Virus record (IMG/VR): IMGVR_UViG_3300044858_002901
Span: 1-31,427 of that record
Origin: a virus
Lineage: Duplodnaviria; Caudoviricetes
Direction: 5' to 3' (one strand)
Length of the DNA stretch: 31,427 nucleotides
Of this stretch, positions 3,120 through 27,740 are shown piece after piece. The translations under genes were made by a program, and so were the position numbers. Every line of letters starts with the position of its first letter. The stretch's first letter is position 1. The notes under the pieces are model-generated. The model saw nothing but the letters and a program-made list of their open reading frames with translations. It ran no database searches and was not told where the DNA came from.

Positions 3120-3150
3120 CCAGTTTCCACTTCACGTCAAGCCGTCAGGC

Positions 3151-4470: not shown

Positions 4471-4515
4471 GTGTGTTCTCCGCCGGCGGTATTGCCGATG
4501 GAGTTCACGGTCGCA

Positions 4516-4686
4516 CTAGCGGGCACCCCTCTTGCAGAAGCGCACTTCAGAAAGTGTTGTTTTCACAAACACCACGCCACGGGCACCGCATCGCGGGCAG
4601 CGTAGATACCGCTGCCGCTCGTCACCGCATGGGCGCGAAGAACGGCACCGCAACTTCTCGCCGCACGTGCAGCGGGCGTCAGCCAT
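4516..4686 (-). CDS. 56-aa zinc-ribbon protein (Ogr/Delta-like)
   Basis: Translated by hand: MADARCTCGEKLRCRSSRPCGDERQRYLRCPRCGARGVVFVKTTLSEVRFCKRGAR. It overlaps the protease stop and is below the ORF-track size cutoff. Confidence 0.6.
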   Translation of the reverse strand: MADARCTCGEKLRCRSSRPCGDERQRYLRCPRCGARGVVFVKTTLSEVRFCKRGAR

Positions 4687-5329
4687 TGCGGAGCCTCAGA
4701 GAAGCAGCCCAGGCGGCGGCGACGCCCCGCAGGGCCGAACGCGAACGATCCGCCTGGGCCGCAGGCTCGGGCGTGGGCTCGGTCTGCGACGCCAGCCACG
4801 CTTCGTAGGAACGCATGGCGACGCCGGCCGACGTTGACGGGTAAGCGGGCACCAGAACCGGGCCAACGTCGTAAAGACCGCTCACCTCGCGGATCTGCCG
4901 CACTGCCTTGCCGTCTTCGCCGGTGCGGAACGATTCGTTCTTCGGGTCCACCGTGAAGGCGAACGACGAGCCACGCACGTCACGCCGCTGGATGAGCTCG
5001 AGCACGTCAGCCCGGCTCACGGGCGGCGTCACCACGTACCGCAGGCCCTTCTCGTCAGACGAGAGTTCCAGCGTGCCGGAAGACGTGCGACCGAGGACGA
5101 TGTTGCTGTCATGATTGAACAGGGCCACCACGTCGCCCTTGCCTCGCTGGCGGCTCAGGATCTTGTCGAACGCGCCCGGCAGGATCTCCTCTTTGAACCC
5201 GCCAAGGTCAAGCGAAAGACGGTTGTAGACGGCGGCGTAGCCGATGATCGCGGCCCGGCCATCGGCACGGCTTTCCACGATCAGTTCGTGCTCGTCCTCA
5301 AACGCAAAGTCGCGGCGTTCAATTTCCAT
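4679..5329 (-). CDS. HK97-type prohead protease
   Basis: GYAAVYN, E.ILPGAF, ALFNHD, GSSFAF and LYDVGPVLVPAY motifs. Confidence 0.95.
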   Translation of the reverse strand: MEIERRDFAFEDEHELIVESRADGRAAIIGYAAVYNRLSLDLGGFKEEILPGAFDKILSRQRGKGDVVALFNHDSNIVLGRTSSGTLELSSDEKGLRYVVTPPVSRADVLELIQRRDVRGSSFAFTVDPKNESFRTGEDGKAVRQIREVSGLYDVGPVLVPAYPSTSAGVAMRSYEAWLASQTEPTPEPAAQADRSRSALRGVAAAWAASLRLRNG

Positions 5330-6611: not shown

Positions 6612-8170
6612 AGGGTGATGATGTCCCAGTTCTGGCTGGGCGTTGTCGAAGTGGCATGCACGCCGGCAGCCATCACCAGGCTCACGATGCCGTCAATTCG
6701 CTCGTGGCTTCTCTGCTTGCTCGGCTTGATGTTTTGCCCGTCTGTCTGAATGGCCACATTTCCGGCCTGCCAGGTAAGCACTTCGTGACCACCGTGAAGC
6801 AGTTTGCCGCCGACAATCCACGCCTCGACCTGGAGCGATGGGGCCGACATGGCTCCATATCCCTGCCCAAAACCTACGACCGGGAGCCCGTCCTCTTGCA
6901 GAAGTTGCTGCGTCAAGTGCGTTGAGTTCCAGCGGTCAACCGCGATCTGTCGAATCGTGTACCGCTTGGCGAGCTCTACGATGTCACGCCGGACTGCCGA
7001 ATAGTCCGTGACGTTCCCTTGCGTGACGTGCAGCAAGCCCTTCCGTTGCCACACGTCATACGGCACCTTGTCACGTTTCACGCGTTGCTGCAGGTTCTCT
7101 TCCGGCACCCAGAAGTGCGGCTGCACCCAGAAGGTTCCATCGTCTAGCGGAAAGAGAAGCACGAAGGCCGTGGTGTCGAATGTCGTGGCCAGGTCGAGCC
7201 CGGCGAAGCACGCGCGGCCAGTGAGATCAACCGGGCAGGGCTGGTTGCCCTTGGCCCAGTTGTGCATGCCGATCCAGCGCGTGTCCTGCTCTGTCCAGCA
7301 ATTCAAGTACAGCTGCTTGAAAGTGTTTTCGTATGCGGGCATCTCAATTGCCCGCTGGCACTCGCTACGCAAGAAGTCACGCTTTACCGAGACGCCGAGA
7401 TTGGGATTGGCTATCGCCCAGGTGCTTTCTTCACGCCAGTCTGAGTCTGGCGGCGAACAGTAGATCGCCGGCAGAAACGTCTCGTCTTTGATTGCACCGG
7501 TCCTCACTGCCTCGGCGTATTTCCAAACCTCCCAGCACACCGACTTCTTGTCGTGCCCGGCTGTCGTGAGTGCGACCGTAAGCGGGTTGCGTCGCGCCCC
7601 TTGGCTCGACAGCATCACCTCCCACATCTCCCGGTTGCTTACGTGGAGCTCGTCAAAGATCACGGCGTGAGCAGACAGGCCGTGCTGAATCCCGGCCTCG
7701 GCGGAAAGTGCCTTGTACGTGGCATGCGTTGACTCACGCACGATGGCGTTGCGGTAGACCTTCAGGTGCTGCCGCAGCACTGGCGACTGCTCGACAGCAA
7801 TGCGTGCGGTGTCGAACACCAGCCTGGCCTGGTCCCTTGAGGCGGCACACGAGTAGACTTCCGCCCCAGGCTCGTCCTCGAGCATGCAACGCAAAGCGAT
7901 TCCGGCCGCCAGCGTGCTCTTTCCATTTTTGCGAGGAATGGCCAGCAGCGACGTGCGAACCTTTCGCCGGCCGTTCTCTTCTGCGAACAATGCCCGCAGG
8001 TAGTCACGCTGCCACGGCTGCAGCAGGAACGGCTTACCACCGAGCTCGCCCTTGGCGTGCGTCAGGTGCTTCTCAAAGAACCGTACCGCGAGGCAAGACG
8101 AGCACGCATTGCACGGCTTTTCAGCCGAACATGAGGCGGTCTTCGTCGTCGCTCGACGCTGCTTGCTCAA
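6608..8170 (-). CDS. terL: terminase large subunit
   Basis: Walker A (IPRKNGKST), Walker B (VIFDELH), nuclease GLDLA and ERIDGIV motifs. The start is uncertain (TTG). Confidence 0.96.
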   Translation of the reverse strand: MSKQRRATTKTASCSAEKPCNACSSCLAVRFFEKHLTHAKGELGGKPFLLQPWQRDYLRALFAEENGRRKVRTSLLAIPRKNGKSTLAAGIALRCMLEDEPGAEVYSCAASRDQARLVFDTARIAVEQSPVLRQHLKVYRNAIVRESTHATYKALSAEAGIQHGLSAHAVIFDELHVSNREMWEVMLSSQGARRNPLTVALTTAGHDKKSVCWEVWKYAEAVRTGAIKDETFLPAIYCSPPDSDWREESTWAIANPNLGVSVKRDFLRSECQRAIEMPAYENTFKQLYLNCWTEQDTRWIGMHNWAKGNQPCPVDLTGRACFAGLDLATTFDTTAFVLLFPLDDGTFWVQPHFWVPEENLQQRVKRDKVPYDVWQRKGLLHVTQGNVTDYSAVRRDIVELAKRYTIRQIAVDRWNSTHLTQQLLQEDGLPVVGFGQGYGAMSAPSLQVEAWIVGGKLLHGGHEVLTWQAGNVAIQTDGQNIKPSKQRSHERIDGIVSLVMAAGVHATSTTPSQNWDIITL

Positions 8171-8579
8171 CGGCTGAGACTCTCGCCAGGGCCGACGCCG
8201 TCAAACCGAACTGCTCTGCAAAACGCAGCATGTGCAGGCGGGCGTCCTTCTTGCGATACCAGGCCGGGTGATTCATCACCCTACCCTTATCGTCCATGAA
8301 CGTGGCCCCGTGCTGCTTCAGTTCCGCCTCGGCCTTCACCATGTCCGCCAGGGCGTCGCAGTACGCGGCCAGCGTGTGCTGGTGCCGCATGCTCATTACC
8401 TTCGACGCCTCAAGCATTGGCACGATCCGCTGCCACTCAGCACGGCCGATCTCGCACAGGTACGAAGGCGGCTCGGGAATGCCAGCAGGGGCTTCAATTC
8501 CGCTCTTATGCGGTCCCCTAACGCGAGCCCCTCGGAGCTTAAGAATCGGTTTAGGCGTAGGCTTCCGGCCCTTACCCAT
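8121..8579 (-). CDS. terS: terminase small subunit, P27 family
   Basis: GRKPTP..LKLRG, AEWQRIVP, NHPA and FGLTASALAR motifs; lies directly upstream of terL. Confidence 0.92.
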   Translation of the reverse strand: MGKGRKPTPKPILKLRGARVRGPHKSGIEAPAGIPEPPSYLCEIGRAEWQRIVPMLEASKVMSMRHQHTLAAYCDALADMVKAEAELKQHGATFMDDKGRVMNHPAWYRKKDARLHMLRFAEQFGLTASALARVSAVEQAASSDDEDRLMFG

Positions 8580-9328
8580 TACGCCACGCGATAGAACGAC
8601 GGGAACCGTGGCACGCCGGCGTCCGTCAGTTGCTGGTACTTGAACGTGAACACGGTGCCAACCGCTGGCGGATCACGACGCAGCGCGTCCGTCAGCCCTG
8701 ACGATACGCGGAACTCCGTGCCGTCTTGCAGTTGGGCAACCAAGGCACCAACGCAAGACGCATTGCGGCCGGTGCCGGATTCGTAGCCGACCACCGTCGC
8801 CTCGGCGTCGTGGAACGTCTTGACCTTGAGCAACGTGCCGCTTCGCTTCCGCTCATAGCGGCTGGCCGGCTGGCGAAGCATCAGCCCCTCGCCGCCTACT
8901 GCCTCAACGCGGGCGAGCTCCTCGAGCATGTGGGCCTGGCTCTCGCACCGCATCTGCGGCAGCACAAACGCTAGACCGCGATTGCCGATCGCGTCACGCA
9001 ACGCAGCCTGCCGATCCTCGAACCCGCCCAGCGACATCGGGGCATCAAACGCCGCGAACCGGATGGACCGCCATTCGTCGCCTCCGCCATGCGACCGCAC
9101 GACGCCGACTGTCTGCTGGAACTTGCCTCGGCCGATCCAGAGCTCGCCATCCAACGGCTCGCCAGCCGGCAAGCCGTCGAGGAACCACTGCGGGGCGTGG
9201 ATCTCCTGGCCAGAACGCGTGGCGAGCGTGCGGCAATCCCACACGGCCCGCACGCCGTCGAGCTTCTCACTCATCCACCAGCCAGCCGGATCGGAACCGG
9301 CCCACGTCTTCGCAAGTAGCACGGGCAT
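8579..9328 (-). CDS. minimal ATP-dependent DNA ligase
   Basis: Motif I SEKLDGVR, III LDGELW, IIIa FAAFD, IV EGLMLR, V LLKVK and a C-terminal PRFP OB-domain motif. GGAGG RBS; TGATG overlap. Confidence 0.93.
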   Translation of the reverse strand: MPVLLAKTWAGSDPAGWWMSEKLDGVRAVWDCRTLATRSGQEIHAPQWFLDGLPAGEPLDGELWIGRGKFQQTVGVVRSHGGGDEWRSIRFAAFDAPMSLGGFEDRQAALRDAIGNRGLAFVLPQMRCESQAHMLEELARVEAVGGEGLMLRQPASRYERKRSGTLLKVKTFHDAEATVVGYESGTGRNASCVGALVAQLQDGTEFRVSSGLTDALRRDPPAVGTVFTFKYQQLTDAGVPRFPSFYRVA

Positions 9329-9834
9329 CACGCATCCTCCAGGCCAAGTTGGGCCAGCGTCACAACGGCCGGTGCGTAGTCGCACGGCGACTTCGTCCAC
9401 GAGTACCACATGCCGTAAGGATGCCGCGAAGGCGGCAACACCGACTGGGCCGGAAGCCCGCCGAAACGCACCTCATAGCCGCCGATCTTTCGCCACCCGC
9501 ACTCAGGAATCGGATCAGCCAGGCGGAAAATGCGGTGCTCACCACGGCCGCTTGTATACGTCGGCGTGTCGGCGTTCAGCAGTCCGAGTTGCTTCACGAT
9601 CCTGAGGCCAGCAGCGTCATCAAACTCGACATCGACCAGGCCGCCATGCCCGCAGAGCAGGCCAACGTTATAGCCGGATGACAGCCACTCGGCGACCACA
9701 TCGGGCGACGTTGTCGCGGACTCATGCCACGCAATGCCGAGCGGCCTTTTGCTGCGGCGGCCAACTTTCACGCACGCCGCACCGTGCTCGAACAGGCCAA
9801 CAAGATCAGCATCACAAGCGACAGACAGCGACAT
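9328..9834 (-). CDS. stand-alone Prim-Pol (bifunctional primase/polymerase) domain protein
   Basis: NVGLLCG..LVDVEFD, TPTYTSGRGEHRIF and VLPPSRHP.G..YSW motifs. AAGGAG RBS. Confidence 0.82.
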   Translation of the reverse strand: MSLSVACDADLVGLFEHGAACVKVGRRSKRPLGIAWHESATTSPDVVAEWLSSGYNVGLLCGHGGLVDVEFDDAAGLRIVKQLGLLNADTPTYTSGRGEHRIFRLADPIPECGWRKIGGYEVRFGGLPAQSVLPPSRHPYGMWYSWTKSPCDYAPAVVTLAQLGLEDA

Positions 9835-14972: not shown

Positions 14973-15331
14973 CACTGCACCTCGCCGGCCTGGTCCTCGA
15001 ACGCGTCCAAGGCTTCGTCTGTCATTTCGATACGCTTGAGCGTCACGGGCTGGCTTTTGATTACGCGGCGGTCCTCGCGTACTTCCTCGCTCCACGTCGC
15101 CTGGATCTCTTTCTTGGTCTGCTCGATCTCGCGGGGCGTCGGGTCACGCTGTCGCACCGGCTTGGCCCGTAGTCGCCTGTCGTGCCGGGGCGGCAAATGC
15201 CAGACGTGCTTTAGCCTGATGACTTGGTCGCGGGAAATGGTCCACCGCTCGCACAGTGCCCTCATCGGCATGTGCGTCAGCCAATCGGCGCGGAAAGCGG
15301 CAACGCTAATGGTCGCCGTGCAGCCCTTCAT
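14969..15331 (-). CDS. HTH-like protein with RDPTP.EIE motif
   Basis: Helical MRALCERWTISRDQVIRLKHVWHLPPR segment; similar layout to the protein at 19434-19742. Confidence 0.6.
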   Translation of the reverse strand: MKGCTATISVAAFRADWLTHMPMRALCERWTISRDQVIRLKHVWHLPPRHDRRLRAKPVRQRDPTPREIEQTKKEIQATWSEEVREDRRVIKSQPVTLKRIEMTDEALDAFEDQAGEVQW

Positions 15332-16214
15332 TGTCGGTCATCCAAGCCATAACGCATCGCTGCGACGGGTTCAGGTAAAGGTGCTGGCCCGTCGCCTTGG
15401 CGACGCTTGCGTGATACGGAACGTGCTCGCAGTCTTTCACGCCGTCATATGTGCCTTGCAGGAAGGCTTCGGTGCGGTAGATGCACAGCCCGCCGAATGC
15501 AGACGAGACGAGCACGGGAGGCGAGCCAACCGGCGGCAGCCACTGATGCTTCCAGCCGCCAAGGCCAGCGGTGTAGTCATCAAAGTAGCAACGAGACTGC
15601 CCAACTCCACGCAACGCCCAGGCATCGTAGTGCGTCCATCCTTTGCCGATCTTCGGCTTGCGATCCTCGCTCATGCCTAGCATCGTGAACTCGTTGAGCG
15701 AGACGCTGGCCATGCCGTAGGCCCCCTGCAATTGCACGAGCCATCCGATGCCGTTGAGAACCCCGGCGTGCGACCACCCGCCCCACTGGTCCCAGTCGAT
15801 GACGATCACATAGTCGGCGTCGGCGGCACAATCACGCACCCACCGCTGGCACGCATCGCGGTACTCGGCCAGGGCAATCGTCCTGCGGCCTGCGAACTCG
15901 GCCCCGTAGTGCTCGCGGCCCAGAGTCTGCGAAGTAAACGTGGCCTGCTTATACGCATCGGAAAACTCCTGGAGCACCTGAAGCGTCTGGTCGGTGCTGT
16001 CGTTCTCTTCGATGTGCAGTGCCCACGACTTGCACGACCGCACAAGGTGCTCGAGCCGCCCGAGGTTCTCAGCCAGCCGCACGGCACAGTTGCGGGCCAG
16101 CCCGACGAAGGCGAGCTTGGAATTGGCTAGTCGTGTTACGCCATCCTCATACCTTTTTTGGAATAGCTCGGCGAACGGTTCCAACGGGTAGATAAGGTGG
16201 TCGGGAATGTTCAT
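15306..16214 (-). CDS. GT-A glycosyltransferase (CAP59/Anp1-like motifs)
   Basis: GLARNC, EENDSTDQT, LAEYRD, VIVIDWD (DxD), SAFGGLCIYR and DCEHV motifs. Confidence 0.78.
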   Translation of the reverse strand: MNIPDHLIYPLEPFAELFQKRYEDGVTRLANSKLAFVGLARNCAVRLAENLGRLEHLVRSCKSWALHIEENDSTDQTLQVLQEFSDAYKQATFTSQTLGREHYGAEFAGRRTIALAEYRDACQRWVRDCAADADYVIVIDWDQWGGWSHAGVLNGIGWLVQLQGAYGMASVSLNEFTMLGMSEDRKPKIGKGWTHYDAWALRGVGQSRCYFDDYTAGLGGWKHQWLPPVGSPPVLVSSAFGGLCIYRTEAFLQGTYDGVKDCEHVPYHASVAKATGQHLYLNPSQRCVMAWMTDNEGLHGDH

Positions 16215-16744
16215 TTCTTCCACGCGACTCCGAGGCCGTAGCCTTCCGTGATGATTTCGTGCGGTGCATTGTGCTTCGCCACGAACTCGTCAAAGCACTG
16301 CATGAGATCCGGGTGAGCCGGGTGCAAGATGTCATGGAACACCACGCAGCCGCCGGGCTTCACGAGCGGCCAGACGTTCACCAGATCGGCCATGCCGCCT
16401 TCGTATGAGTGGTCGCCGTCCACAAGCACAAAATCGAACGCTTCGGCCTTCTCGGGCATTAGCGCCGGGATCGTGTGTCGGCTGTTGCCGTCGAGAAACA
16501 CACGGCGTCCGTTAAAACTGAAATCGTCCAGCAGCTGCTCGATGTGCTGGTGGTTGCCGCGTCCGCTGCCGCCGTAGTCGCTGCCCCAAAGATCCGCCAC
16601 CCAGACCGAGAGCAGGTCGGCCGCGGCGTTCTCCAGCACGATTCGCAGCGAGTCGCCTTCACGGGTGCCGATCTCGAGGTAGTGCTCGACCTTGTGCCGT
16701 TGGCAGTGCTCAGTTAGGTAGCGGTAGAGGCTGGCGTTGCTCAT
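16211..16744 (-). CDS. class I SAM-dependent methyltransferase (Methyltransf_24-like)
   Basis: LEIGTREGDS, VDGDHSYEG and VKPGGCVVFHD motifs. Confidence 0.9.
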   Translation of the reverse strand: MSNASLYRYLTEHCQRHKVEHYLEIGTREGDSLRIVLENAAADLLSVWVADLWGSDYGGSGRGNHQHIEQLLDDFSFNGRRVFLDGNSRHTIPALMPEKAEAFDFVLVDGDHSYEGGMADLVNVWPLVKPGGCVVFHDILHPAHPDLMQCFDEFVAKHNAPHEIITEGYGLGVAWKK

Positions 16745-17244
16745 CCGATCCGCACGGTAGTCCGTGCCTCCGTCAAATGAAAAGTTGCCTCGTGCTCTGT
16801 CGCTGAGATGTCAAACGCAGTGACGGCAACAGCTAGCGCCGCCCATCGGTGCTGAGAAATGCCGTAAAGCGGGCCTGGCGACTTCTTGGTGCCAACTGCG
16901 CCGCACCTGTCAATCAGAGCCTGTCGAATGTTGCCGTCCTTGGCTCGCGGCGATTGGCACAAGTGCATCTTCACGTCGCGGCGAGGAACAAGCCGCAGGC
17001 TACGAACGTGCTGCGAGAACATGCCGATTGCGAAAACCGTCTCAAAAACCTCGCGGCCAACCGCCATGCCAAAGGACTCAATCCATTCGCACGCAACAGG
17101 GTCGCACGAAGAATCCAAGTACGCAGCAAGCTCGGCGTTTGGCATATCGCCAGAACGCACAACGCGAGCGCCGTTCCACACGACGTACGAAGAGTCGCGC
17201 GGGCCTGGGTCAATCCCGGTAACGGTTTCTCTGGTAAGCGCCAT
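16741..17244 (-). CDS. RuvC-like Holliday junction resolvase
   Basis: GIDPG near the N-terminus, a central acidic E (CEWIES), and a KDGNIRQAL...AALAVA C-terminus. Confidence 0.72.
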   Translation of the reverse strand: MALTRETVTGIDPGPRDSSYVVWNGARVVRSGDMPNAELAAYLDSSCDPVACEWIESFGMAVGREVFETVFAIGMFSQHVRSLRLVPRRDVKMHLCQSPRAKDGNIRQALIDRCGAVGTKKSPGPLYGISQHRWAALAVAVTAFDISATEHEATFHLTEARTTVRIG

Positions 17245-17358
17245 GCCCGCACTATCGCGAGCATGTCAAGCCGGGCATCCTTCACGGCGTTATCCGGCGT
17301 CGCCGTCTTTCTCGGTCGCGTGTCTGCCTAGCCGCCGCGAAACTCGGTTGGTCGCCGT

Positions 17359-17395
17359 ATTAGGCTGCGAACTGGCAGCCTAATTCTTGTTCTAT
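17359..17395 (+). other. left boundary of cassette array: perfect 10-bp inverted repeat plus lone GTT core site (attI-like)
   Basis: ATTAGGCTGC-GAACTG-GCAGCCTAAT followed by TCTT-GTTCTAT. GTTCTATTTC (17389-17398) is the exact reverse complement of GAAATAGAAC (17652-17661). Confidence 0.55.
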
Positions 17396-17625
17396 TTCTT
17401 GCCGACGCCCTTCATCCGCAGCCTCAGTAGCCGCCTTCGTTCGTCCATTGAGTCCCGTCGCTTCTGGAGCCGCTTTCGCTCGCGGCCGTCATAAAACACC
17501 ACCCACAACTCCAGGCGTTCATCAATCCAGTGAATGCCACGATCCAGCCTGCGAAGCGTCTCTCTGTCCTTCTGTGAAATCGCGGAGCCACGACTCGAAC
17601 GTGGGCCTTGAGTGCGCTTACTCAT
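17392..17625 (-). CDS. cassette 1 gene, basic hypothetical protein
   Basis: MSKRTQG... (alternative GTG start at 17637). The TAG stop lies inside the GTTCTAT core. Confidence 0.65.
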   Translation of the reverse strand: MSKRTQGPRSSRGSAISQKDRETLRRLDRGIHWIDERLELWVVFYDGRERKRLQKRRDSMDERRRLLRLRMKGVGKK

Positions 17626-17654
17626 GTTCTGCACCACCTAAACTACTCCGCGAA

Positions 17655-17705
17655 ATAGAACCACGCGATGCTGCGGACTAACGCCGCAGATCGCTGGCGT
17701 TCTGT
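17655..17705 (+). repeat. attC-like site 1 (51 bp)
   Basis: ATAGAAC-CACGC-GATGCTGC-GGACTAACGCC-GCAGATC-GCTGGC-GTTCTGT. Confidence 0.85.
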
Positions 17706-17707
17706 GG

Positions 17708-17917
17708 CTACTCGCACTCCAGCGAAACAAACGCCGGGACGAAAGCACCGCCGTAGGTGTCTCGGGTCTGCCGGAGAGCGTCTACCAGTTCCTGCCGCTG
17801 CTTCTGCAACTTGGCGATCACGGCGACAAGACGCCCCATAAGTTCAACGTCGCCGTATATGTCGGATTCCTGGCCGCTTGTGATTCGGTAGTTTGCGATC
17901 TCAACAATATCGTCCAT
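17708..17917 (-). CDS. cassette 2 gene, 69-aa hypothetical protein
   Basis: MDDIVEIANY...; GAGGTG RBS; coiled-coil-like segment. Confidence 0.7.
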   Translation of the reverse strand: MDDIVEIANYRITSGQESDIYGDVELMGRLVAVIAKLQKQRQELVDALRQTRDTYGGAFVPAFVSLECE

Positions 17918-17942
17918 GACTTCACCTCGTTTTTCTACGCTC

Positions 17943-17991
17943 ACAGAACCACGCGATGCAGCGGACGAGCCGCTGATCGCTGGCGTTCTCA
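17943..17991 (+). repeat. attC-like site 2 (49 bp)
   Basis: ACAGAAC-CACGC-GATGCAGC-GGACGAGCC-GCTGATC-GCTGGC-GTTCTCA. Confidence 0.85.
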
Positions 17992-18315
17992 CTTCGTTCG
18001 TTCCAGTAGGTCGCAGATCGCTTCGTAATCTTCAATCTGCTGCATTGTCATGTCGTTGTGATCCATGTCGCGGAACGCGATCCTCACCCTGTCCACCGCC
18101 TCCCGCTCCTCGTCGGTGAGCGTCGGCGAGCGGTAAAGCGGGACGACGCCGTGATTCCCTGTAACAGCCTCGTCAATCGCCTTGGCCTCTTCCTCGATGC
18201 CATAGACATCGTAGATTCGCTGGCCGTCAGCAAGCATCACAGCCCACGCAACTGGCTCCCCGTGAGAACCAGCGGATGCAAGAGACGGCTCGTTGGTGTC
18301 GTTTGGTTTGGTCAT
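17989..18315 (-). CDS. cassette 3 gene, LTDEEREA-family protein
   Basis: 108 aa, EPVAWAV...VVPLYRSPTLTDEEREA...LLERTK. AAGGAG RBS and ATG lie inside the attC3 loop. Confidence 0.8.
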   Translation of the reverse strand: MTKPNDTNEPSLASAGSHGEPVAWAVMLADGQRIYDVYGIEEEAKAIDEAVTGNHGVVPLYRSPTLTDEEREAVDRVRIAFRDMDHNDMTMQQIEDYEAICDLLERTK

Positions 18316-18352
18316 GTCTTCTCCTTGCCGCTCCTGATCCTTGTCGTTCTAC
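18263..18352 (+). repeat. attC-like site 3 (90 bp)
   Basis: TGAGAAC-CAGCG-GATGCAAG-AG(A)CGGC...GCCGCT-CCTGATC-CTTGTC-GTTCTAC. Confidence 0.78.
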
Positions 18353-18379
18353 GTCTCCACTTTCGCTCAAGAGCGCAAT

Positions 18380-18502
18380 TCAGCGGCGTCGCCGATGCCA
18401 GCGAGGCCGATGGCTGGGCTTGTGCGGGAACCCGATAGACAATGCGCCCATCATCACGACGAATACCGCCAAAGCCAGGACGATAACCGCTGTTTCGCTC
18501 AT
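18380..18502 (-). CDS. cassette 4 gene, 40-aa membrane peptide with Arg-rich tail
   Basis: MSETAVIVLALAVFVVMMGALSIGFPHKPSHRPRWHRRRR; GAGGG RBS. Confidence 0.65.
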   Translation of the reverse strand: MSETAVIVLALAVFVVMMGALSIGFPHKPSHRPRWHRRRR

Positions 18503-18521
18503 TGTTCCCTCTCTGATTCCC

Positions 18522-18611
18522 AGAGAACCACGCGATGCAGCGGACCCGCGATGCCGCCGTCTGGTTGTAGTTTCGTCAGCGGTCGCGGGCCGCTGATCGC
18601 TGGCGTTCTCA
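18522..18611 (+). repeat. attC-like site 4 (90 bp)
   Basis: AGAGAAC-CACGC-GATGCAGC-GG(A)CCCGCGA...TCGCGGGCC-GCTGATC-GCTGGC-GTTCTCA. Confidence 0.88.
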
Positions 18612-18842
18612 ACCAAGCCGTGCCAGTATCGACTCAATCGCCTTCCTGTGCGGTTCGTACATGATCGTCGGAAGCATCCCGCGCAACGCCTCCCGCTCCT
18701 CGTCGGTGAGCGCGGGCTGCGGCTCGCGGTATGGAGTGCCGTCAGGGTTTTGGCGGACGTAACCTGCCGATGGCGATGTGATCCACTGTCGGAACAATGC
18801 CTGCTGCTGTGAATCGAACCGCGCCTTCTCGTTGCCATCCAT
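18609..18842 (-). CDS. cassette 5 gene, LTDEEREA-family protein
   Basis: 77 aa, MDGNEKARF...QPALTDEEREAL; GGAGG RBS; TGA stop inside the core site. Confidence 0.75.
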   Translation of the reverse strand: MDGNEKARFDSQQQALFRQWITSPSAGYVRQNPDGTPYREPQPALTDEEREALRGMLPTIMYEPHRKAIESILARLG

Positions 18843-18858
18843 GATTGCCTCCATTCGT

Positions 18859-18907
18859 TGAGAACCAAGCGATGCAGCGGACGAGCCGCTGATCGCTGGC
18901 GTTCTCA
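18859..18907 (+). repeat. attC-like site 5 (49 bp)
   Basis: TGAGAAC-CAAGC-GATGCAGC-GGACGAGCC-GCTGATC-GCTGGC-GTTCTCA. Confidence 0.85.
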
Positions 18908-19138
18908 CTTCGTGCGCTCCAACAGCGACCAGAGTTTTGCGGAATCTGCGCCAACAACCCGATACATCGCGCGAAATATCACCTGCCGCTCCTCGTCGGT
19001 GAGCGTGGGCTGCGGAATCCAACTCCTGCGGTCCAGTTCTCTCGCCGCGTCCAGCAAAACGTCACTGTAATCGGCACCGCAAATGTTGAGCGCGTCGCTC
19101 ATGTCTCGCAGCCGTTCGGCCAGTTCGTTCTGTGTCAT
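18905..19138 (-). CDS. LTDEEREA-family protein at right end of array
   Basis: 77 aa, ELAERLR...AAREL...QPTLTDEERQV...LLERTK; AAAGGA RBS. Confidence 0.78.
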   Translation of the reverse strand: MTQNELAERLRDMSDALNICGADYSDVLLDAARELDRRSWIPQPTLTDEERQVIFRAMYRVVGADSAKLWSLLERTK

Positions 19139-19209
19139 ATCAACGTCCTTTCTCGGGCTGCTCTCTGTGGTCAGTGATGATCGCCGCCTATTTTCGCGGT
19201 TTTCGCTGA

Positions 19210-19437
19210 TTATCGGTCAAAATCCACGCGACACCGTGCAATCAGTTTCTCCAGCACGGCCGCGTGCCGCTCCTCTCCGGGCGTGTCGGCGTACGCCGCA
19301 AACCACGCAATCGCCTCCCGCTCCGCTTCGGTGAGCCGCAGGCGTGCGACCTCCGCCTCTAACTGCTGCACTCGCTCCATCGCCTGGATGAGCGCATCCA
19401 GATCGTCAGGCATCATCGGCGGCACAAGATCACTCAT
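19210..19437 (-). CDS. LTEAEREA-family protein (outside attC array)
   Basis: LEAEVARLRLTEAEREAIAWF; ATGA overlap with the upstream gene. Confidence 0.72.
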   Translation of the reverse strand: MSDLVPPMMPDDLDALIQAMERVQQLEAEVARLRLTEAEREAIAWFAAYADTPGEERHAAVLEKLIARCRVDFDR

Positions 19438-19742
19438 GCCACACCTCTCGGTTGATGTATCCGGCGCCGCCATTGCGACACTTTGCTGTGCGTGGTAGTC
19501 ACGTCTTCCGCCATGCGCTCCGCGATGTGACGTGCCTTTAGTTCCGCCTTCATCCGCTCGATCTCGTCTGGCGACGGGTCACGCGATACCTGACACGGCC
19601 GCGTTGGCCGTGCCGGCAGCTTATACCGGGCCGCCATTTTGTACGCCGTACTGGCCGAGACGCCGAAGCGATTGCCAATCGACTCGGCCGTCTCGCCAGC
19701 CATCCACATTCGCGTCAGGATCAATGCCGTCTGGTTCTCCAT
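19434..19742 (-). CDS. HTH protein, GcrA-like N-terminus
   Basis: LTRMWMAGETAESIGNRFGVSASTAYKMAARYKLPAR followed by RDPSPDEIE. Confidence 0.65.
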   Translation of the reverse strand: MENQTALILTRMWMAGETAESIGNRFGVSASTAYKMAARYKLPARPTRPCQVSRDPSPDEIERMKAELKARHIAERMAEDVTTTHSKVSQWRRRIHQPRGVA

Positions 19743-19744
19743 GG

Positions 19745-20854
19745 TCACTCCGTAGCCAGCGGCATGATGACGCCAGTGAACGTGTCGGTGCGGAGCACCA
19801 CGGCTGACTGTGCGTCGGTGGCCTGGACGCTCACCGTGGGCTCGCCGTCGGCCGGCAGGCCCGACAGCCACTCCCTGACGAACACCGGATCGAGCTTCAC
19901 CGTGCACGCCTTGCCGGCCTCCACGATGTCGCACGTCACGCTCGACTCGCCGGCCTCGGCCGACTGCCCGTGCAGGTGGATGCCCTCGGCAGTGAACGTG
20001 TACTGCACCCCCTTCGACTGCTCGCTCGTCACGATTGCCGCCGCCCTGGTCGCCGACAGCAACTCCGTGGCCAGCACCGTAGTCGGCTCGCCGCCATCCG
20101 ACGGGATCACGTCACGCCACCGCGGGAACCGGCCATCGGTCAGCCGAGCCGTGACGGTCGTGCCGCCAATCGTGGCCAGCAGCTCGTTGCCGGTGGCCTC
20201 CAGCTGCACAGAGCCATCCCCCGCCGCAACGGCGACGCGGGCGAGGATCTGCATCACCCGGCTCGGCACGAGCGTCGTGCTGTCATCCACCGCCAGGTCA
20301 TGCTCCATCTCGCACGAGCACAGCCGGCGGCCGTCCGTGGCCACGAACGTGACCACGCCGTCCTTCACGTCCACGAGCACGGCCCCGAGGGCGAACCGGC
20401 TGGACTCCTGGTCAGCCGCGAACACCACGCCACGCACCGCCCGAGCGAACTGGTCCGCCGGCAGCCGAGTCACCGGCTTGGCGTCCGCCGGCTCCCAGAT
20501 CGGGTATTCAGCCGCGTCCTCGACGGGCAGCGTCCACGTGCCGTGGCCACACCGCACGACGCACTGCGTCCCCTTCGTCTCCAGCGTCACCTCGTCACCT
20601 CCGGCAGCGCCGAGGATCGCCATGAGCCGTCCGTGCGGCAGCAGCATGGCATCGCCGTGGTAGTCGATGGCGGCGTCGATCCGCACCTCGAGGTCCGTGC
20701 CGGTTACGAGCCCGTCACCCAGACGCACGTTCGTCAGCACCGGCTTCGGTGCCCGGCTTGGCACCGCCGGACTGACAGCGGCGAGAGCACTCCTCAGATC
20801 GGCGACGCTCAATGTCACGCCACCACTCCGCTTGCGTTCCTTCGTTGCGGCCAT
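19745..20854 (-). CDS. dnaN: DNA polymerase III beta sliding clamp
   Basis: 369 aa with PKPVLTNV, GTDLE, SRFALGAV, VATDGRRL, RLTDGRFP and GVIMPL motifs. Confidence 0.93.
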   Translation of the reverse strand: MAATKERKRSGGVTLSVADLRSALAAVSPAVPSRAPKPVLTNVRLGDGLVTGTDLEVRIDAAIDYHGDAMLLPHGRLMAILGAAGGDEVTLETKGTQCVVRCGHGTWTLPVEDAAEYPIWEPADAKPVTRLPADQFARAVRGVVFAADQESSRFALGAVLVDVKDGVVTFVATDGRRLCSCEMEHDLAVDDSTTLVPSRVMQILARVAVAAGDGSVQLEATGNELLATIGGTTVTARLTDGRFPRWRDVIPSDGGEPTTVLATELLSATRAAAIVTSEQSKGVQYTFTAEGIHLHGQSAEAGESSVTCDIVEAGKACTVKLDPVFVREWLSGLPADGEPTVSVQATDAQSAVVLRTDTFTGVIMPLATE

Positions 20855-20963
20855 AATCGTTCTGTCCTTTCTTCATCGACACTCCCACCAAAACGCCCAG
20901 CACGAACGTGCCGGCAAGCGTCAGGTGGCCAATCGCAATCAGCACAAACTGCTCTGCGGTCAT
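20715..20963 (-). CDS. small membrane protein (overlaps dnaN 5' end)
   Basis: N-terminal TM segment (FVLIAIGHLTLAGTFVLGVLVGV); ATGA overlap upstream; 140-bp overlap with dnaN. Confidence 0.5.
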   Translation of the reverse strand: MTAEQFVLIAIGHLTLAGTFVLGVLVGVSMKKGQNDYGRNEGTQAEWWRDIERRRSEECSRRCQSGGAKPGTEAGADERASG

Positions 20964-21196
20964 AGCCCCATCCCCGGGTCTTCGTCGTCCAGCAACGGAA
21001 AACTACGCGACGCCAACTCGGCCTCGACAATCTCCAAACACTTGGCGTTGCTCGTCACACGCTCCATCAGCTGCTCGATCACAAGCGACGCCCGCTCGAG
21101 CAACCGCCGGCTGCGGTCGTCAACGTCGTCATCCCACGCGCGACGCAGGCATGCGTTCGCAATCGCCCGCGGCGAGACCTGGCGGCGTGGCCTCAT
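20960..21196 (-). CDS. hypothetical protein
   Basis: MRPRRQVSPRAIA...; GAGGTG RBS; ATGA overlap. Confidence 0.65.
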   Translation of the reverse strand: MRPRRQVSPRAIANACLRRAWDDDVDDRSRRLLERASLVIEQLMERVTSNAKCLEIVEAELASRSFPLLDDEDPGMGL

Positions 21197-21414
21197 GACA
21201 CCACCTCGATTCCACGAGTCTGACGGGCACGGCGACGCAACAGCCCCTTCTTCTCCAGGGCACGGATGTGGCACATCGCACCGTTGGGAGAACGGAACCC
21301 GAAGTGGTCGCATATCTCGCGGACTGTCGGGCCGCAGAGCGCGGTGCGTTCGCGGACGAACGCAAGGATCTCTCGCTGGCGGTCGGTGGCGGGTGGCGGC
21401 TGCGTGGTGGTCAT
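21193..21414 (-). CDS. LexA-type winged-helix DNA-binding domain only
   Basis: TDRQREILAFV...PTVREICDHFGFRSPNGAMCHIRALEKKGLLRR; no peptidase domain. Confidence 0.88.
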   Translation of the reverse strand: MTTTQPPPATDRQREILAFVRERTALCGPTVREICDHFGFRSPNGAMCHIRALEKKGLLRRRARQTRGIEVVS

Positions 21415-22313
21415 AGGCTCTCGTCCTTGAGTTTGAGTGTCGTGGCAAGCGCAGTTACTACGCCTGCACCTTGCTTGTCTCGGCGCCAGATGGCGTACTC
21501 ACGCTCGGTCATGTTCTGGCCGGCATCGCCACGCCAGTAGCGTTTCTTCGCCTGGTCAACCGGCGGCGGTGTCGCCTGCCGTGCAGCCTCTCGGTGGGTG
21601 CCACCACGATCCTGGCACTTGCTCAGCCACACAGTGGTGAGCCAGCGTCGCCAGTTCGATTTGCGTGCCTTCTTGGGGTTCGCCTTCAGCCACTGATTGG
21701 CCTTGGCGAGTTCAACGGGAAGGTCAGCCGCCGGGTAAGCCTGTGACCATTCCGCATGGTCAGCGTCGGTGATTCCTTCCCAGCCCGATTCCGCAGACCA
21801 CCGAAGCGGATCGGCCGGCTTCGAGCATCGCCGCCGCTGCGGCGTGCTCGGAGCACCCAAAGGATTAGAGGTAGAAGGATTAGAGGTAGAAGGATATAAG
21901 GCGCAAGAAGCCGGGGGATTTCCCGGCTCCAGCGTTGGATTTCCCGGCTTTGCGTTTCGCTCGGGAAAAACGATGGTTTCCGCCGATTCGTCGGGTGGAG
22001 GCAGCCCTTCGTCACGCTCGTCTGGGTGACACCTCTGGTGCTCCCCAAAAGTCGGGATCTCAAGCACCTTCACGTTGCCCGATTCGTAGGCTCGGACGAA
22101 GCCCCTGTCGGCCAGCTGCTTGAGCAGGCCGACGATGTCGCAGTTCTCATACGGGAAGAGCTCGGCCTTGATCCGCAGCGGGCGGAACTCCATCCGGCCC
22201 TGGCTGTCGGCCAGCGTCCAAAGCCCGACGAAGAGCAGACGAGCCATCGGCTCGCACTCGGCCAGGTACTCGTTCTTGAAGAACGACGGCTTGATGCTAC
22301 GAGTGCGTGCCAT
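21411..22313 (-). CDS. phage replication initiator (replisome organiser)
   Basis: MARTRSIKPSFF...ARLLFVGLWTLADSQGR N-terminus, a repetitive linker, and a C-terminal YP..D...EL.KA..WL.ANP domain. Confidence 0.82.
   Translation of the reverse strand: MARTRSIKPSFFKNEYLAECEPMARLLFVGLWTLADSQGRMEFRPLRIKAELFPYENCDIVGLLKQLADRGFVRAYESGNVKVLEIPTFGEHQRCHPDERDEGLPPPDESAETIVFPERNAKPGNPTLEPGNPPASCALYPSTSNPSTSNPLGAPSTPQRRRCSKPADPLRWSAESGWEGITDADHAEWSQAYPAADLPVELAKANQWLKANPKKARKSNWRRWLTTVWLSKCQDRGGTHREAARQATPPPVDQAKKRYWRGDAGQNMTEREYAIWRRDKQGAGVVTALATTLKLKDESL
21860..21949. repeat. iteron-like repeats / putative replication origin
   Basis: AAGGATTAGAGGTAG twice plus AAGGAT (21860-21895); GGATTTCCCGGCT at 21916 and 21937 (21-bp period). 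Confidence 0.55.
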
Positions 22314-23064
22314 CCGTGGCCTCCTGTACGCGCTTAGACCTTTGCGAATCCCTTTGGGCCGCACGCAAATTTGAAGCGCCATTGCCAGCCGGATTTAGAA
22401 GCCCGACGAAAAGAGCCTCAATACGAAGTCTGTCGTTCTTGTCGCAGTGCAATACCCCAACCATCCTGTCGCCAATCTCTGGCCTCGATGCCTGAACACG
22501 AGAAGGAACGTTGATACTTTCTCCTACATAGTGTGCTGTTCCGTCACTATTCCAAGCGATGTACACGCCAGAGAACGGGTCCATGGCGTTGACATCCCTT
22601 GCCGTGTAAAGCGGAGGCGGAGGCGTAGGCAAAGTGTTAAGTAATTTGCCGCACTCAGCCGCAAGGATTGCCTCTCTGGCCTCTGGGTTTCTTGCTGCGT
22701 CACGCCAAGACGCAAAAAGGAACTGCCTCACTATTCCAGCGGGCCACTCAAACCGCTTGACCTTGCCTTCATATCCAGCCTTCTTGATTCGTAGCCCCTT
22801 CGTCTTTGGGTGCAGTTTCTGGTCCGTTTGCCCAACGTCAGCACTGCCGCTCAAGTCCATCGGAAGTCTGTGTTCGTCGCGCCTATTCCAATCAAATGTG
22901 ACGTGAACAGAGCCTTCCGGCTGACGCTTTAAAATCCACACCTTGGCAGCCAGCGGATCGCCGATGTGGTCCAGCTCATAAAACAAATCGAGCGGCGTCC
23001 ACGACGGTTCAAGCACAACAACGCTGGTCGTATTGTCAGGCCACAAGGCAACGACTGTAGGCAT
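22297..23064 (-). CDS. protein with C-terminal GIY-YIG-like nuclease domain
   Basis: SGVYIAW....HYVGESINVPSR...IEALFVGLLNP..N. Visibly less GC-rich than its neighbours. Confidence 0.65.
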   Translation of the reverse strand: MPTVVALWPDNTTSVVVLEPSWTPLDLFYELDHIGDPLAAKVWILKRQPEGSVHVTFDWNRRDEHRLPMDLSGSADVGQTDQKLHPKTKGLRIKKAGYEGKVKRFEWPAGIVRQFLFASWRDAARNPEAREAILAAECGKLLNTLPTPPPPLYTARDVNAMDPFSGVYIAWNSDGTAHYVGESINVPSRVQASRPEIGDRMVGVLHCDKNDRLRIEALFVGLLNPAGNGASNLRAAQRDSQRSKRVQEATDGTHS

Positions 23065-23384
23065 CACGCCACCCTCCAAACCGTGGCCATCCGTCCGCTA
23101 GCCGTCTTCCGCGTCCCGGCCTCGACCACAAGACCACGCCGTGCAAGTTCGATCCGCCGTGGCCGCTGCGTGGACGGGTTCATTGCCAAAGCGGCCTGCT
23201 GTTCCTCGTCTGTGAGACCGTGCGGGTTCTCCCGCAGCAGCTCAAGCACACGCCGCTGTAGTGCGTTCAGCGTCGCCGGCCCGAGCGAGTCGGCAGCTGC
23301 GGCCGAGGTGGCCGAGCCTTTGACGGACGGGGCTCGAGCGGCGAAGAGCGGGCCGGCACAGCCTTCGATGCCGTAGTGGTTCAT
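23064..23384 (-). CDS. winged-helix DNA-binding protein
   Basis: LQRRVLELL...GLTDEE...NPSTQRPRRIELARRGLV..G.RKT.SGR.A.VW; AAAGGA RBS. Confidence 0.75.
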   Translation of the reverse strand: MNHYGIEGCAGPLFAARAPSVKGSATSAAAADSLGPATLNALQRRVLELLRENPHGLTDEEQQAALAMNPSTQRPRRIELARRGLVVEAGTRKTASGRMATVWRVA

Positions 23385-23540
23385 CACGCATCCTTTCGTG
23401 TGTATTAGCCCCGTGACGTGGGGCACTCGGTCGCATCACCTCTGGGAGAAGAGGCTGCGACTGCCGGCGTTGGTCCGCACTGGGCCGGCTCTACGGGCGG
23501 ATGCAGCTGTGAGCCGCTCAGGCAACCGCGTGCCGTTGGT

Positions 23541-23801
23541 TCAACCGTCGCTCATTGGTCCTGGTTTGCCGCCTCTGTCGTTGACCAGCGGCGCAGGCGG
23601 CTCGTACTGGTGCAGTCGCTTCACCATCTCTGCGAGTTGTGCAGCCCATGACGCCTCGAGCCGATTGATGTCTCGCACCTGCCGATCCATCTGCCGCACG
23701 TAGGATGCAAACCGCGTGTAGCCGCTGTGGTGCAGCAGATTCGCGATGTCATTGCCGCTGAACGTCAGCGGCTCTTCGGCGAGCGGGTGTCGCTTACGCA
23801 T
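23541..23801 (-). CDS. hypothetical protein
   Basis: MRKRHPLAEEPLTF...; overlaps the annealase stop. Confidence 0.6.
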   Translation of the reverse strand: MRKRHPLAEEPLTFSGNDIANLLHHSGYTRFASYVRQMDRQVRDINRLEASWAAQLAEMVKRLHQYEPPAPLVNDRGGKPGPMSDG

Positions 23802-24642
23802 TGGTCTGCTCCGATCCGGCGGCTTCGGCGGCGAACTCCTGGCCGTTGTCCTCGGGCTCGCTCTCAAGCCACTCGCACTTCGTGTCGATCAGCCCGATCA
23901 ACTCGTCACGCTGGGCCTCGGTGAACGTGCCATCGGCATGCCGCTGGTGCACTCGCTGACGGTAGGACGCCAGCACATCGAGGTTGTTGGTCTTTTGCAC
24001 CAGCAGCCTGACGTTCGCCATCGCACCCGAAGCGGCCGTCGTCTGTGCCGCCGCGGGGGCGTCAAGCTTCGGACGCACCACAACGGGCTCGTGGGCCGGG
24101 GCAACCGTCGGGTAGTCCTGTGCCTCTTCGGCCGTAATAAGCCCACGCAGAGCGTCGGCGAATGCGTTACGCAAGGCGAAGCCACGTGCTCGCAGCGTCA
24201 GCATTCGAGCCGGGTAGTTTTGCCAAGGCCCGGCCTTGCCCCACAGCCCCGCCTTCTTGGCGTCGGGCACCGAGAACCGCACCGTTGTGGGTGTCGGGTA
24301 GCCTCGCCGCTTGGCCTCGCACACGGCGACCAGCTGCTCGCCGTCTCCCTCGGTGTACTCGCGGACGTACTCGCAGACCGGGCTGCTCTGCACCAGGGCC
24401 AGGGCAGCGTCACCCCAGATCGTGGGCCGTCCGTTGATAACCGCGATGCTCTGCAGGCTCTGCATCGGGGACAGGCCAACCTCGCTGCCGTGCTGGATGG
24501 CCAGCATGCAGGACTCGGGCTTGCCGCGAAAATCCTTCGGGGCGAACTCCGACGCCGACACCATCTTGGAGAATCGGTAGGCGTCATCGAACGATTGAAG
24601 GGCCAAGCCGCTGGCCCGCTGGGTGCTGATCTCCGTGCTCAT
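23794..24642 (-). CDS. RecT/Red-beta-like single-strand annealing protein
   Basis: AIQHGSEVGLSPMQSLQSIAVINGRPTIWGD and KAGLWGK.GPW..YP.RML..RA..FALR..F.D.L.G motifs. Confidence 0.82.
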   Translation of the reverse strand: MSTEISTQRASGLALQSFDDAYRFSKMVSASEFAPKDFRGKPESCMLAIQHGSEVGLSPMQSLQSIAVINGRPTIWGDAALALVQSSPVCEYVREYTEGDGEQLVAVCEAKRRGYPTPTTVRFSVPDAKKAGLWGKAGPWQNYPARMLTLRARGFALRNAFADALRGLITAEEAQDYPTVAPAHEPVVVRPKLDAPAAAQTTAASGAMANVRLLVQKTNNLDVLASYRQRVHQRHADGTFTEAQRDELIGLIDTKCEWLESEPEDNGQEFAAEAAGSEQTNA

Positions 24643-26303: not shown

Positions 26304-26582
26304 CTACTTCCGGCGACGTGCGGCCTTCTTGGCCGTCTTCCGTTTGGCGGCTGGCCGCTTGGCGAGATGCCGCTTGCCATTGGCCCTGGTCGTCAGGCCC
26401 GCCTTGGCCTCGGTGGCGGCGGCCTCGGGGATGAGCCAGACCCGCTGGCCGATCCGCTTCGCTCCGCGGAGCTTGCCAGCGCCCAGGAGTGTCCGCACCC
26501 ACGCCTCGGAGCACCCCATGTACTCGACGGCCTCGGATACGGTGAGCCACTTGCCCGGCGCAAAGTCTGCCATAGCGATCAT
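26304..26582 (-). CDS. excisionase-like HTH (HTH_17/MerR-like) with Lys/Arg/Ala tail
   Basis: WLTVSEAVEYMGCSEAWVRTLL..GKLRG.KRIG.RVWLIP; divergent from the recombinase. Confidence 0.82.
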   Translation of the reverse strand: MIAMADFAPGKWLTVSEAVEYMGCSEAWVRTLLGAGKLRGAKRIGQRVWLIPEAAATEAKAGLTTRANGKRHLAKRPAAKRKTAKKAARRRK

Positions 26583-26588
26583 GCCCAA

Positions 26589-26617: not shown

Positions 26618-26798
26618 ACTGTCCTGCCGCCGCATCCAGCAGAATCCGCCCACTTCCGCCAATCCGAGAATCGCAGTCCCAACACCGCGACAATCGAACT
26701 AGTGAACAAAAGTAGTAGCGGAGGGCATGGGAGCAGGAAAGTCGTACACACTGAACTTGTGTATACTGCCGCTACAACACCAAACGGGAGGCAGTCAG

Positions 26799-27740
26799 AT
26801 GAAGATTCGGGAGCTTTTGCACGAGCGGTACGCACCGTTGCACAACCTGTCGGCCAGGAGCGTGGTGCTCTTCGGCCATTCCATCGACCGGCTAAAAGAC
26901 TTTCTGCAGCGGGAGCCGGAAACTACCGACTTTGACGATCTGGTGATTGCGAAGTTCTTGCGATGGCGGGCCGTCACACCGCACCGCGGCAAGGTCTGCT
27001 CGCCGGCCAGCGTGGCGAAGGACAAGGCCCACATCAGCGCTTTGTGGAACTTCGCCGCGAGAAAGCGGATCGCTGCCGAGTTCCCTGATTTGCCACGCCT
27101 GCGGGTTCCCACGCGGCCCCCACTGGGCTACACGGTCGCCGAGGTGTCTGCACTCGTCAGAGCGGCCAGAACGGCACACGGCTCAATTGGTGGCGTGCCA
27201 GCCCCATGGCTATGGATGACACTGATTCAGTCCCTTTGGTACACGGGCGAGCGGATCGGCAGCCACCTGCGGCTGCGGTGGTCGGAGGTGGAGCTCGACG
27301 CCTGCCGCATTACGTTCTTGGGCGAGACCCGCAAGGGTGGCATCGAGACGATCCAGCGTGCGATCCACCCTGACCTGGCCCAGCAGCTGCGTCGCTACCG
27401 CAGGGCGGATGCCGATCTCGTCTGGCCGTGGCTCGAGCACCGTCGGCCCAGCAGCCTATTCCAATCGCTCAGGCTGCTGTGCCAGCGGGCCGGCGTCAAA
27501 CCGAGGGGATTCCACGCCATTCGCAAGGCGAGCGGTTCATACGTGAAAGCAGGGGGCGGCGATGCCACGGACCACCTTTCGCATTCCAATCCGAAAACGA
27601 CAAAGGATCATTACATCGACGTTTCGATCACGGGCCAGCAGTCGGCCCTGGACTACCTGCCGCCGCTCGACCTGAACGAGCCGCCGCAGGGAGGAGACAG
27701 GCCAGCGGCTGAATTGGGTAGCAACACGGAAACTAGGTAG
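26799..27740 (+). CDS. tyrosine recombinase/integrase
   Basis: Catalytic set R (YTGERIG), K (TRKGG), HxxR (FHAIRK), H (LSHSN) and Y (KDHYID); GGGAGG RBS. It is the only confident plus-strand gene. Confidence 0.93.
   Translation: MKIRELLHERYAPLHNLSARSVVLFGHSIDRLKDFLQREPETTDFDDLVIAKFLRWRAVTPHRGKVCSPASVAKDKAHISALWNFAARKRIAAEFPDLPRLRVPTRPPLGYTVAEVSALVRAARTAHGSIGGVPAPWLWMTLIQSLWYTGERIGSHLRLRWSEVELDACRITFLGETRKGGIETIQRAIHPDLAQQLRRYRRADADLVWPWLEHRRPSSLFQSLRLLCQRAGVKPRGFHAIRKASGSYVKAGGGDATDHLSHSNPKTTKDHYIDVSITGQQSALDYLPPLDLNEPPQGGDRPAAELGSNTETR

Follow-up and report, generated by a model that had tools for sequence, protein, structure and literature searches.

What is an array of integron-like hairpins doing in a phage genome, and why do all the small genes between its sites run on the bottom strand? 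The question is raised by IMG/VR record IMGVR_UViG_3300044858_002901 (Duplodnaviria; Caudoviricetes), analysed here as a window that comprises the entire virus record of 31,427 nt, estimated to be ~79% complete. Integrons are viewed as belonging to bacteria, and in the titles of recent preprints they appear as anti-phage gene stores. Between the Holliday junction resolvase gene and the sliding-clamp region of this phage lie five hairpin repeats that read AGAAC on the left and GTTCT on the right, together with a lone GTT core at 17389. Positions 17389-18907 form an attI-like site followed by five attC-bounded cassettes, and a sixth open reading frame (ORF) beyond them has only a relic attC. The cassettes are units joined at GTT on the plus strand, their genes are inverted, and they are spread across related phages. 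We give a probability of roughly two in three to the reading that these are integron-type cassettes behind a likely attI, with inverted genes, which a host IntI excises and inserts in trans. The structure itself, a real and mobile row of integron-type cassettes whose genes are inverted, headed by an attI-like site and lacking IntI, has good support; which enzyme acts, whether the genes are expressed and why they are inverted are matters of inference.

The five repeats have the hallmarks of attC sites, namely R'' and R' boxes bearing AAC and GTT triplets, paired L boxes, a hairpin formed by a single strand, extrahelical bases on the top-strand AAC arm (as in attC4, Table 1) and an unpaired central spacer. 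Four of the five fold far better than their shuffles (z between -3.1 and -5.8), and attC3, at z -0.46, keeps its arm pairing. At its strict setting our attC detector reported no site on the opposite strand or in the reversed window, and it found attC3 only when relaxed. Each unit runs from G/TT to G/TT (the slash marks the crossover) and its own two ends are complementary, as expected of a mobile gene cassette: the cassette start is complementary to the R'' of the same cassette over 10, 8, 8, 5 and 9 nt for cassettes 1 to 5, and such complementarity reaches at least 7 nt in 82 of 108 viral cassettes, compared with 14 of 108 between the ends of one site. With five same-strand attC sites within 1.25 kb (the limit being <4 kb apart) and no intI nearby, the array also qualifies as a CALIN (a cluster of attC sites without intI) by the definition given in the accessible part of PMC4889954, the sites having been found by our own detector rather than by the IntegronFinder model. 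The first-pass annotation of this DNA had remarked that the cores read GTTCT rather than GTTRRRY; this is true of all six, but not as a phage peculiarity, as 36 of 66 bacterial array sites depart from the consensus too. GTTRRRY was found in 0 of 245 viral sites, a count biased because the viral set was seeded with the AGAAC pattern, and in 30 of 66 bacterial array sites, with the GTT triplet itself retained.

Table 1. Features of the array and its surroundings (positions in the window)
Feature	Position	Strand	Remarks
Holliday junction resolvase gene, left flank	16741..17244	-	PHROG 1770, E 2e-11
attI-like docking site	17359..17395	+	10-bp hairpin 17359-17384; core GTT 17389-17391
Cassette 1 ORF	17392..17625	-	77 amino acids, basic; TAG in core; codon score 6.1 (from inner GTG); L119 homolog 92%
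attC1, short	17655..17705	+	R'' 17655-17661, R' 17699-17705; fold z -3.6
Cassette 2 ORF	17708..17917	-	69 amino acids; stop 9 nt from G; codon score 14.2; distant homolog L107
attC2, short	17943..17991	+	Extra base G17958 (bottom-strand C); fold z -3.1
Cassette 3 ORF	17989..18315	-	108 amino acids; TGA in core; codon score 20.3; 335 homologs at E<=0.001
attC3, long	18263..18352	+	Loop holds ORF3 translation start; fold z -0.46
Cassette 4 ORF	18380..18502	-	40 amino acids; hydrophobic N-terminal half, basic tail; codon score -0.1
attC4, long	18522..18611	+	Left-arm extra bases G18537, A18544 (bottom C, T); fold z -5.6
Cassette 5 ORF	18609..18842	-	77 amino acids; TGA in core; codon score 7.7
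attC5, short	18859..18907	+	Fold z -5.8
ORF6	18905..19138	-	77 amino acids; TGA in attC5 core; codon score 9.9
Relic long attC	19124..19170	+	Loop kept, left arm absent
ORF7	19210..19437	-	Cassette-like protein without attC; has repeated module
Replication initiator gene	21411..22313	-	PHROG, E 2e-43
Candidate origin repeats	21860-21895, ~21915-21950		Short tandem repeats within the initiator gene (21411-22313)
RecT gene	23794-24642
Excisionase-like helix-turn-helix gene	26304-26588		Divergent from tyrosine recombinase
Phage tyrosine recombinase, not IntI	26796..27740	+	PHROG integrase, E 8e-20; no TIGR02249 match

Since neither the R boxes, which are symmetric, nor the folding energies, which are similar for both strands, tell the top strand from the bottom, we tested in three ways which strand is the top one. 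First, extra bases on the AAC arm mark the top strand (Nivina 2016, PMC5027507, as far as the accessible text goes), and in the window it is the plus strand that carries them on this arm. Second, we mapped the joints between cassettes. Cassette 4 with its right attC (18346-18609) is 95.5% identical in another viral locus, L437, where the limits of identity are the GTT cores; upstream of it stands an attI-like site in two loci (L437, L020) and an attC in the window and L018. Cassette 1 is preceded by the attI-like site in the window and by an attC in L119, and a contig of run X1 spans 17389-17701 after an attC-like stretch (mapped at 85% likeness). Cassettes sharing their last 30 nt had right attC sites of equal length class in 37 of 37 pairs; for those sharing their first 30 nt the length class of the left attC matched in 24 of 51 pairs, with a background of 56%, the pairs in both comparisons being non-independent. 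An earlier joint comparison by whole-cassette pairs was uninformative (4 versus 3, only 7 pairs). Third, the same attC arms carry top-strand genes in bacteria. The plus strand is the top strand, and the window genes are therefore inverted, as the first-pass annotation had claimed for all cassette genes; of the cassettes only five are complete, the sixth ORF, on the same strand, having a relic attC only. A top-strand ORF with attC downstream is typical of cassettes, although not absolute, and here every ORF of the array lies on the bottom strand, breaking the usual layout in which the attC follows the gene.

The coding strand itself was settled by coordinates together with a codon model, which was trained on 22 window genes and called the strand correctly for all 68 held-out 240-nt pieces. 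All six ORFs proved to lie on the minus strand, as first proposed, and within 17250-19500 no plus-strand ORF exceeded a codon score of 0.4. ORF4 has a coding score near zero, yet it has four homologous matches at 88-95%. The proposal that four of the stops are built into the GTT core was likewise borne out, with 7-nt cores beginning at 17389, 17985, 18605 and 18901, and the remaining two stops are separated from the G by 9 and 34 nt. Substitutions are biased to the third codon position, which favours coding; we left this bias unused for the strand because an antisense frame can share third positions. None of the cassette proteins scanned belonged to a Pfam or PHROGs family (ORF4 was scanned by PHROGs only, and the Pfam reference for ORF5 was out of frame).

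The inversion is not confined to the window. In the viral collection the left-arm pattern picked out 133 stretches, of an estimated ~260, and full flanks were present in 80; an initial, looser genome scan had yielded just 6 distinct full sites from 120 loci. Among the 108 cassettes of viral loci chosen by pattern only, 101 have their gene on the bottom strand, none on the top and 7 are unclear. The enlarged set of 180 cassettes, which includes the window, gives 168 bottom, 0 top and 12 unclear, but is biased, the added loci having been fetched partly with minus-strand proteins (the 108 are free of this), and both sets count sequences, many with common descent, rather than independent events. 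Beside host IntI the picture is the opposite, with 20 of 30 cassettes top, 0 bottom and 10 unclear (they come from 8 of 28 IntI neighbourhoods retrieved), so that the suggested survey of ORF orientation, with none of 180 viral cassettes and 20 of 30 host cassettes on the top strand, came out in favour of a phage-specific inversion. The further idea that these cassettes are built for the phage rather than captured from a host array agrees with this opposite polarity and with a blastn comparison of 72 host and 183 phage cassettes, which returned zero matches. In bacterial arrays, individual cassettes that have a promoter of their own can be inverted too. We discounted 10 bottom calls among 49 cassettes from genomes, of which 7 are on one contig, L309, and the other 3 are weak (scores 3-5). 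L309 itself comes from a bacterial bin, its seven bottom-strand cassettes include some that resemble viral ones, and it is likely a binned phage piece. The same cassette family also occurs in a much larger phage (L401, 1620-2534, on the 205-kb record G058, without a PF00589 match), because of which the cassette pool seems to cross phage types.

In the inverted layout the hairpin takes up a new position relative to the gene. Among 142 bottom-strand cassettes shorter than 520 nt, the stop lies in the core in 73 and no more than 10 nt from the G in 131, and the predicted start falls within the right-hand attC at 71 of 97 long sites and 0 of 45 short sites; the length class of the left attC does not predict a start inside attC in these 142 cassettes. 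The starts inside long right-hand sites indicate that each hairpin lies ahead of the gene in its cassette and frequently contributes the start, an example being ORF3, where a Shine-Dalgarno-like sequence, the ATG and ~16 N-terminal codons are located within attC3.

The left end of the array behaves, on sequence grounds, as a docking site. The leftmost GTT (17389), first taken for an attC core, belongs instead to the attI-like site, and no attC arms were found upstream of it; the crossover there is inferred to be G/TT. The left ends of arrays are conserved across phages, and the docking site of the window heads different first cassettes in L465 and L468. In L467 and L469, again ahead of other first cassettes, it matches window positions 17359-17384 with the 6-nt hairpin loop inverted, as expected if the hairpin extrudes and flips. 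The hairpin also scores as a plus-strand terminator-like element. Measured against 2107 random GTT positions scored with a host attI matrix, 17 of 28 phage left ends lay beyond the 99th percentile, the matrix being built from eight sites beside host intI that were picked by eye. No sigma-70-like promoter was found in 17000-23500 (0.9 expected by chance) with a scan model that may not fit this host, and a cassette promoter Pc at attI, if present, would read antisense to the cassette genes. Planctomycete genomes (L382, L384, L385, L386, L388 and L389) have an attI-like site and array downstream of intI on the same strand, and L383 differs from their inverted-integrase layout.

At the right end the array appears to have decayed. 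The right arm of the relic attC has lost 11 nt, the crossover bases among them, and the start of ORF6 is identical at 37 of 39 positions to the loop of intact long attC sites (L437, L420), with a score of 70 against a null maximum of 41; the corresponding comparison for ORF7 revealed no attC relic (score 25, within the null). ORF6 is thus likely a frozen former cassette. Elsewhere, the core of the last attC is mutated in L586 and L587, L584 combines a docking site with one gene and no attC, and in the complete relative G101 (L613) the corresponding place is empty. These ends suggest that cassettes are gained at attI, the promoter-distal end of a leftward transcript, and lose their attC at the far end. 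From empty site through docking site with one gene and full array to decayed ends, they provide a natural series for the formation of cassettes, and the origin of new cassettes is named as an open question in a 2021 review (PMC8618304, in the part available).

As for the enzyme, none of 39 related viral records (9 near-complete) contained IntI above the cut-off, and beside the attI-like site of the window, itself ~79% complete, there is no intI with the IntI-specific insertion that a complete integron would have. IntI was found in 10 of 16 chosen genomes and, within the likely host order, in 60 of 301, and the attC arms beside host IntI (L633, L683) closely resemble both phage subtypes. Homologs of the tyrosine recombinase of the window occur in 82 of 401 genomes of Pirellulales, the order of G040, which supports this order as the host group; a search of bacterial genome contigs with the recombinase brought up no clear integrated prophage. 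Judging from these comparisons, a host IntI acting in trans is the likely recombining enzyme, because the phages are without IntI and their own recombinase, considered below, lacks the insertion and does not track the arrays.

In the mechanism that we propose, the substrate of IntI would be the folded bottom (minus) strand, which in this phage would double as the sense strand, and early transcription running leftward would pass through the array from its oldest cassette toward attI. Each hairpin would stand ahead of its own gene, often providing the ribosome-binding site and first codons, with the core providing the stop. Newly acquired cassettes would arrive at the end farthest from the promoter, and old ones would shed their attC and turn into fixed phage genes. 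A host cassette inserted at the phage attI would lie antisense to the operon, so that it would likely be silent and fail to persist. To a bolder form of this proposal we give somewhat less than even odds: that the array is a mirror-image integron running on host IntI, that a phage-only pool is traded via phage-borne attI sites, that inversion acts as a firewall and that arrays work as conveyors. If so, host cassettes, defence genes among them, would not be expressed in the phage, nor would phage cassettes be expressed from a host Pc; the recombination hairpin would have become a translation start and N-terminal peptide; and genes would be added at one end and fixed as ordinary phage genes at the other. 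A phage-owned inverted pool using the same sites would show phages exploiting integron machinery for accessory genes.

The transcription assumed in this mechanism fits most flanks, as the bottom strand carries the genes left of the array in 26 of 28 cases and those to the right in 18 of the 19 with enough sequence. The exceptions are G003 and G016, where flanking genes run opposite to the cassette genes. One possible cause of the inversion would be selection for high recombination through placement of the recombining strand on the lagging-strand template, which is compatible with host IntI acting on inverted cassettes and concerns only the selective cause. The geometry given in the first-pass annotation is correct, in that a fork moving leftward from 21.9 kb makes the minus strand the lagging template, and excision rises when the bottom strand is on the lagging template (Loot 2017, PMC5371416). 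If the genes run the same way as a leftward fork, the inverted arrangement alone brings the bottom strand onto that template. The initiator gene lies 2.5-4.5 kb to the right of the array. Lambdoid phages are the model for an origin placed in the initiator gene, and from the tandem repeats in that gene an origin nearby is plausible. GC skew, which keeps its sign (-0.055 left, -0.024 right), does not locate the origin, and the initiator was matched in only 4 of 39 related records, strongly in one (G021, with the same geometry). G003 is oriented the other way yet its cassettes are inverted, and one founding event with inheritance would give the same pattern. The lagging strand is thus a possible reason for the layout, though on this balance we rate such selection as doubtful.

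Still less probable, and in our judgement unlikely, is that the phage tyrosine recombinase shuffles the same cassettes, which would make the array a stand-alone phage integron whose enzyme is not IntI. Its catalytic motifs appear intact, homologs are present in 17 of 39 related records, and it adjoins the array in G003 and G016. It is, however, without the IntI-specific insertion and lies divergent from the excisionase-like gene, as in a lysogeny module. The recombinase does not track the arrays: among 35 records fetched with it, attC-type arms occur in 5, and in 1 of the 4 near-complete ones (a count made by reading matched letters, in which a subtype with a third mismatch would be missed); G101 carries it and its site is empty; and the near-complete G035 and G058 have attC sites without a PF00589 match. 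Non-IntI recombinases near attC are, moreover, scattered over the tree and beside few sites, according to the part of Cury 2016 available to us (PMC4889954).

A third possibility is that the hairpins serve mainly as repeated homology for RecT-type recombination and that genes swap by homologous exchange. The phage does have a RecT gene, its arms are near-identical and its cassette proteins are mosaics with shared short modules, a sign of some homologous exchange, but one and the same cassette is found joined at an identical GTT to attI-like sites without attC homology (L437, L020, L119), and complementarity between the ends of one cassette is a prediction of recombination through circular cassettes, making homologous exchange quite improbable. 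Finally, that these are ordinary cassettes, with minus as the real top strand or captured from a host array, has been largely refuted and retains hardly any likelihood: the symmetric R boxes and similar folding energies would permit it, but the position of the extra bases, the joint mapping, the same arms with top-strand genes in hosts and the lack of common cassettes speak against it.

Several observations weigh against our preferred reading, that host IntI moves these cassettes in trans, beyond the bias and shared descent in the viral counts and the by-eye choice of matrix sites. The docking site of the window matches the host attI matrix weakly (top 4.3%, a hairpin variant), and the first extra base is a C on the bottom strand where G is canonical, host sites being alike in this. 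The G003 array faces against its flanking operon, a poor fit with operon read-through. Of 17 near-complete records, 13 carry a tyrosine recombinase of some kind, and two arrays stand directly beside the recombinase gene (L579 of G003, 2775-6046; L580 of G016, 3300-6861). IntI is found in just a fifth of sampled host-order genomes, many of them possibly incomplete; the enzyme was arrived at by elimination, and the host was deduced rather than observed.

The known systems closest to the array include the phage CALINs of Qi 2023 (PMC9892861), which are likewise attC clusters in phages without intI. According to the portion of that paper available to us, there are 17 of these, and the bottom strands of 5 of 6 tested phage attC sites recombine with IntI1; the cassettes of TJE1 and PH101 are called typical in direction and that portion describes no inverted-ORF rule. 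Unlike those clusters, as far as they are described there, the present arrays have an attI-like site, a large phage-only cassette family and starts inside attC. Phage attC clusters themselves are thus already published, and what is new here is the inverted layout, for which we found no paper in the open-access literature, subscription journals being mostly outside the search. Sedentary chromosomal integrons of Planctomycetota resemble the arrays in attC arm sequence and extra bases, have the same G/TT joints, and possess an attI to which the left ends of most phage arrays are similar in sequence; they carry a TIGR02249 IntI, and their genes lie on the top strand with the attC behind the gene, whereas the phage is without IntI or a detected Pc, has inverted genes and mostly shorter cassettes, and has none in common with them. 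Action of the integrase in trans on cassettes away from intI also recalls attG insertion, SALINs (single attC sites lacking an integrase) and small CALINs (bioRxiv 10.1101/2022.09.11.507474); in the accessible text attG sites differ from att sites, and the present arrays are headed by a conserved, reused attI-like site.

The rest of the window contains capsid, terminase, sliding-clamp and RecT genes, nearly all genes being on the minus strand, and zero Rfam matches. Integron integrases are often LexA-controlled, and a gene for a stand-alone LexA DNA-binding domain (21193-21414; Pfam E 3e-15) lies upstream of the array; its protein might affect host intI expression. Genes for an ATP-dependent DNA ligase and for a protein with a primase-polymerase domain (8579-9409, 9328-9834) occupy an unusual spot directly upstream of the terminase genes, and two genes at 15306-16744 resemble, by eye, a methyltransferase and a glycosyltransferase. 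Within the cassette proteins, a coding module resembling LTDEERE is repeated at 18085-18127, 18675-18717, 18968-19010 and 19300-19342 (ORFs 3, 5, 6 and 7) and recurs in 21 of 101 viral cassette proteins, where two further terminal modules also recur. ORF3, ORF5 and ORF6 have a C-terminal module (family D1) in common, and the cassette genes look like mosaics assembled by exchange at shared modules.

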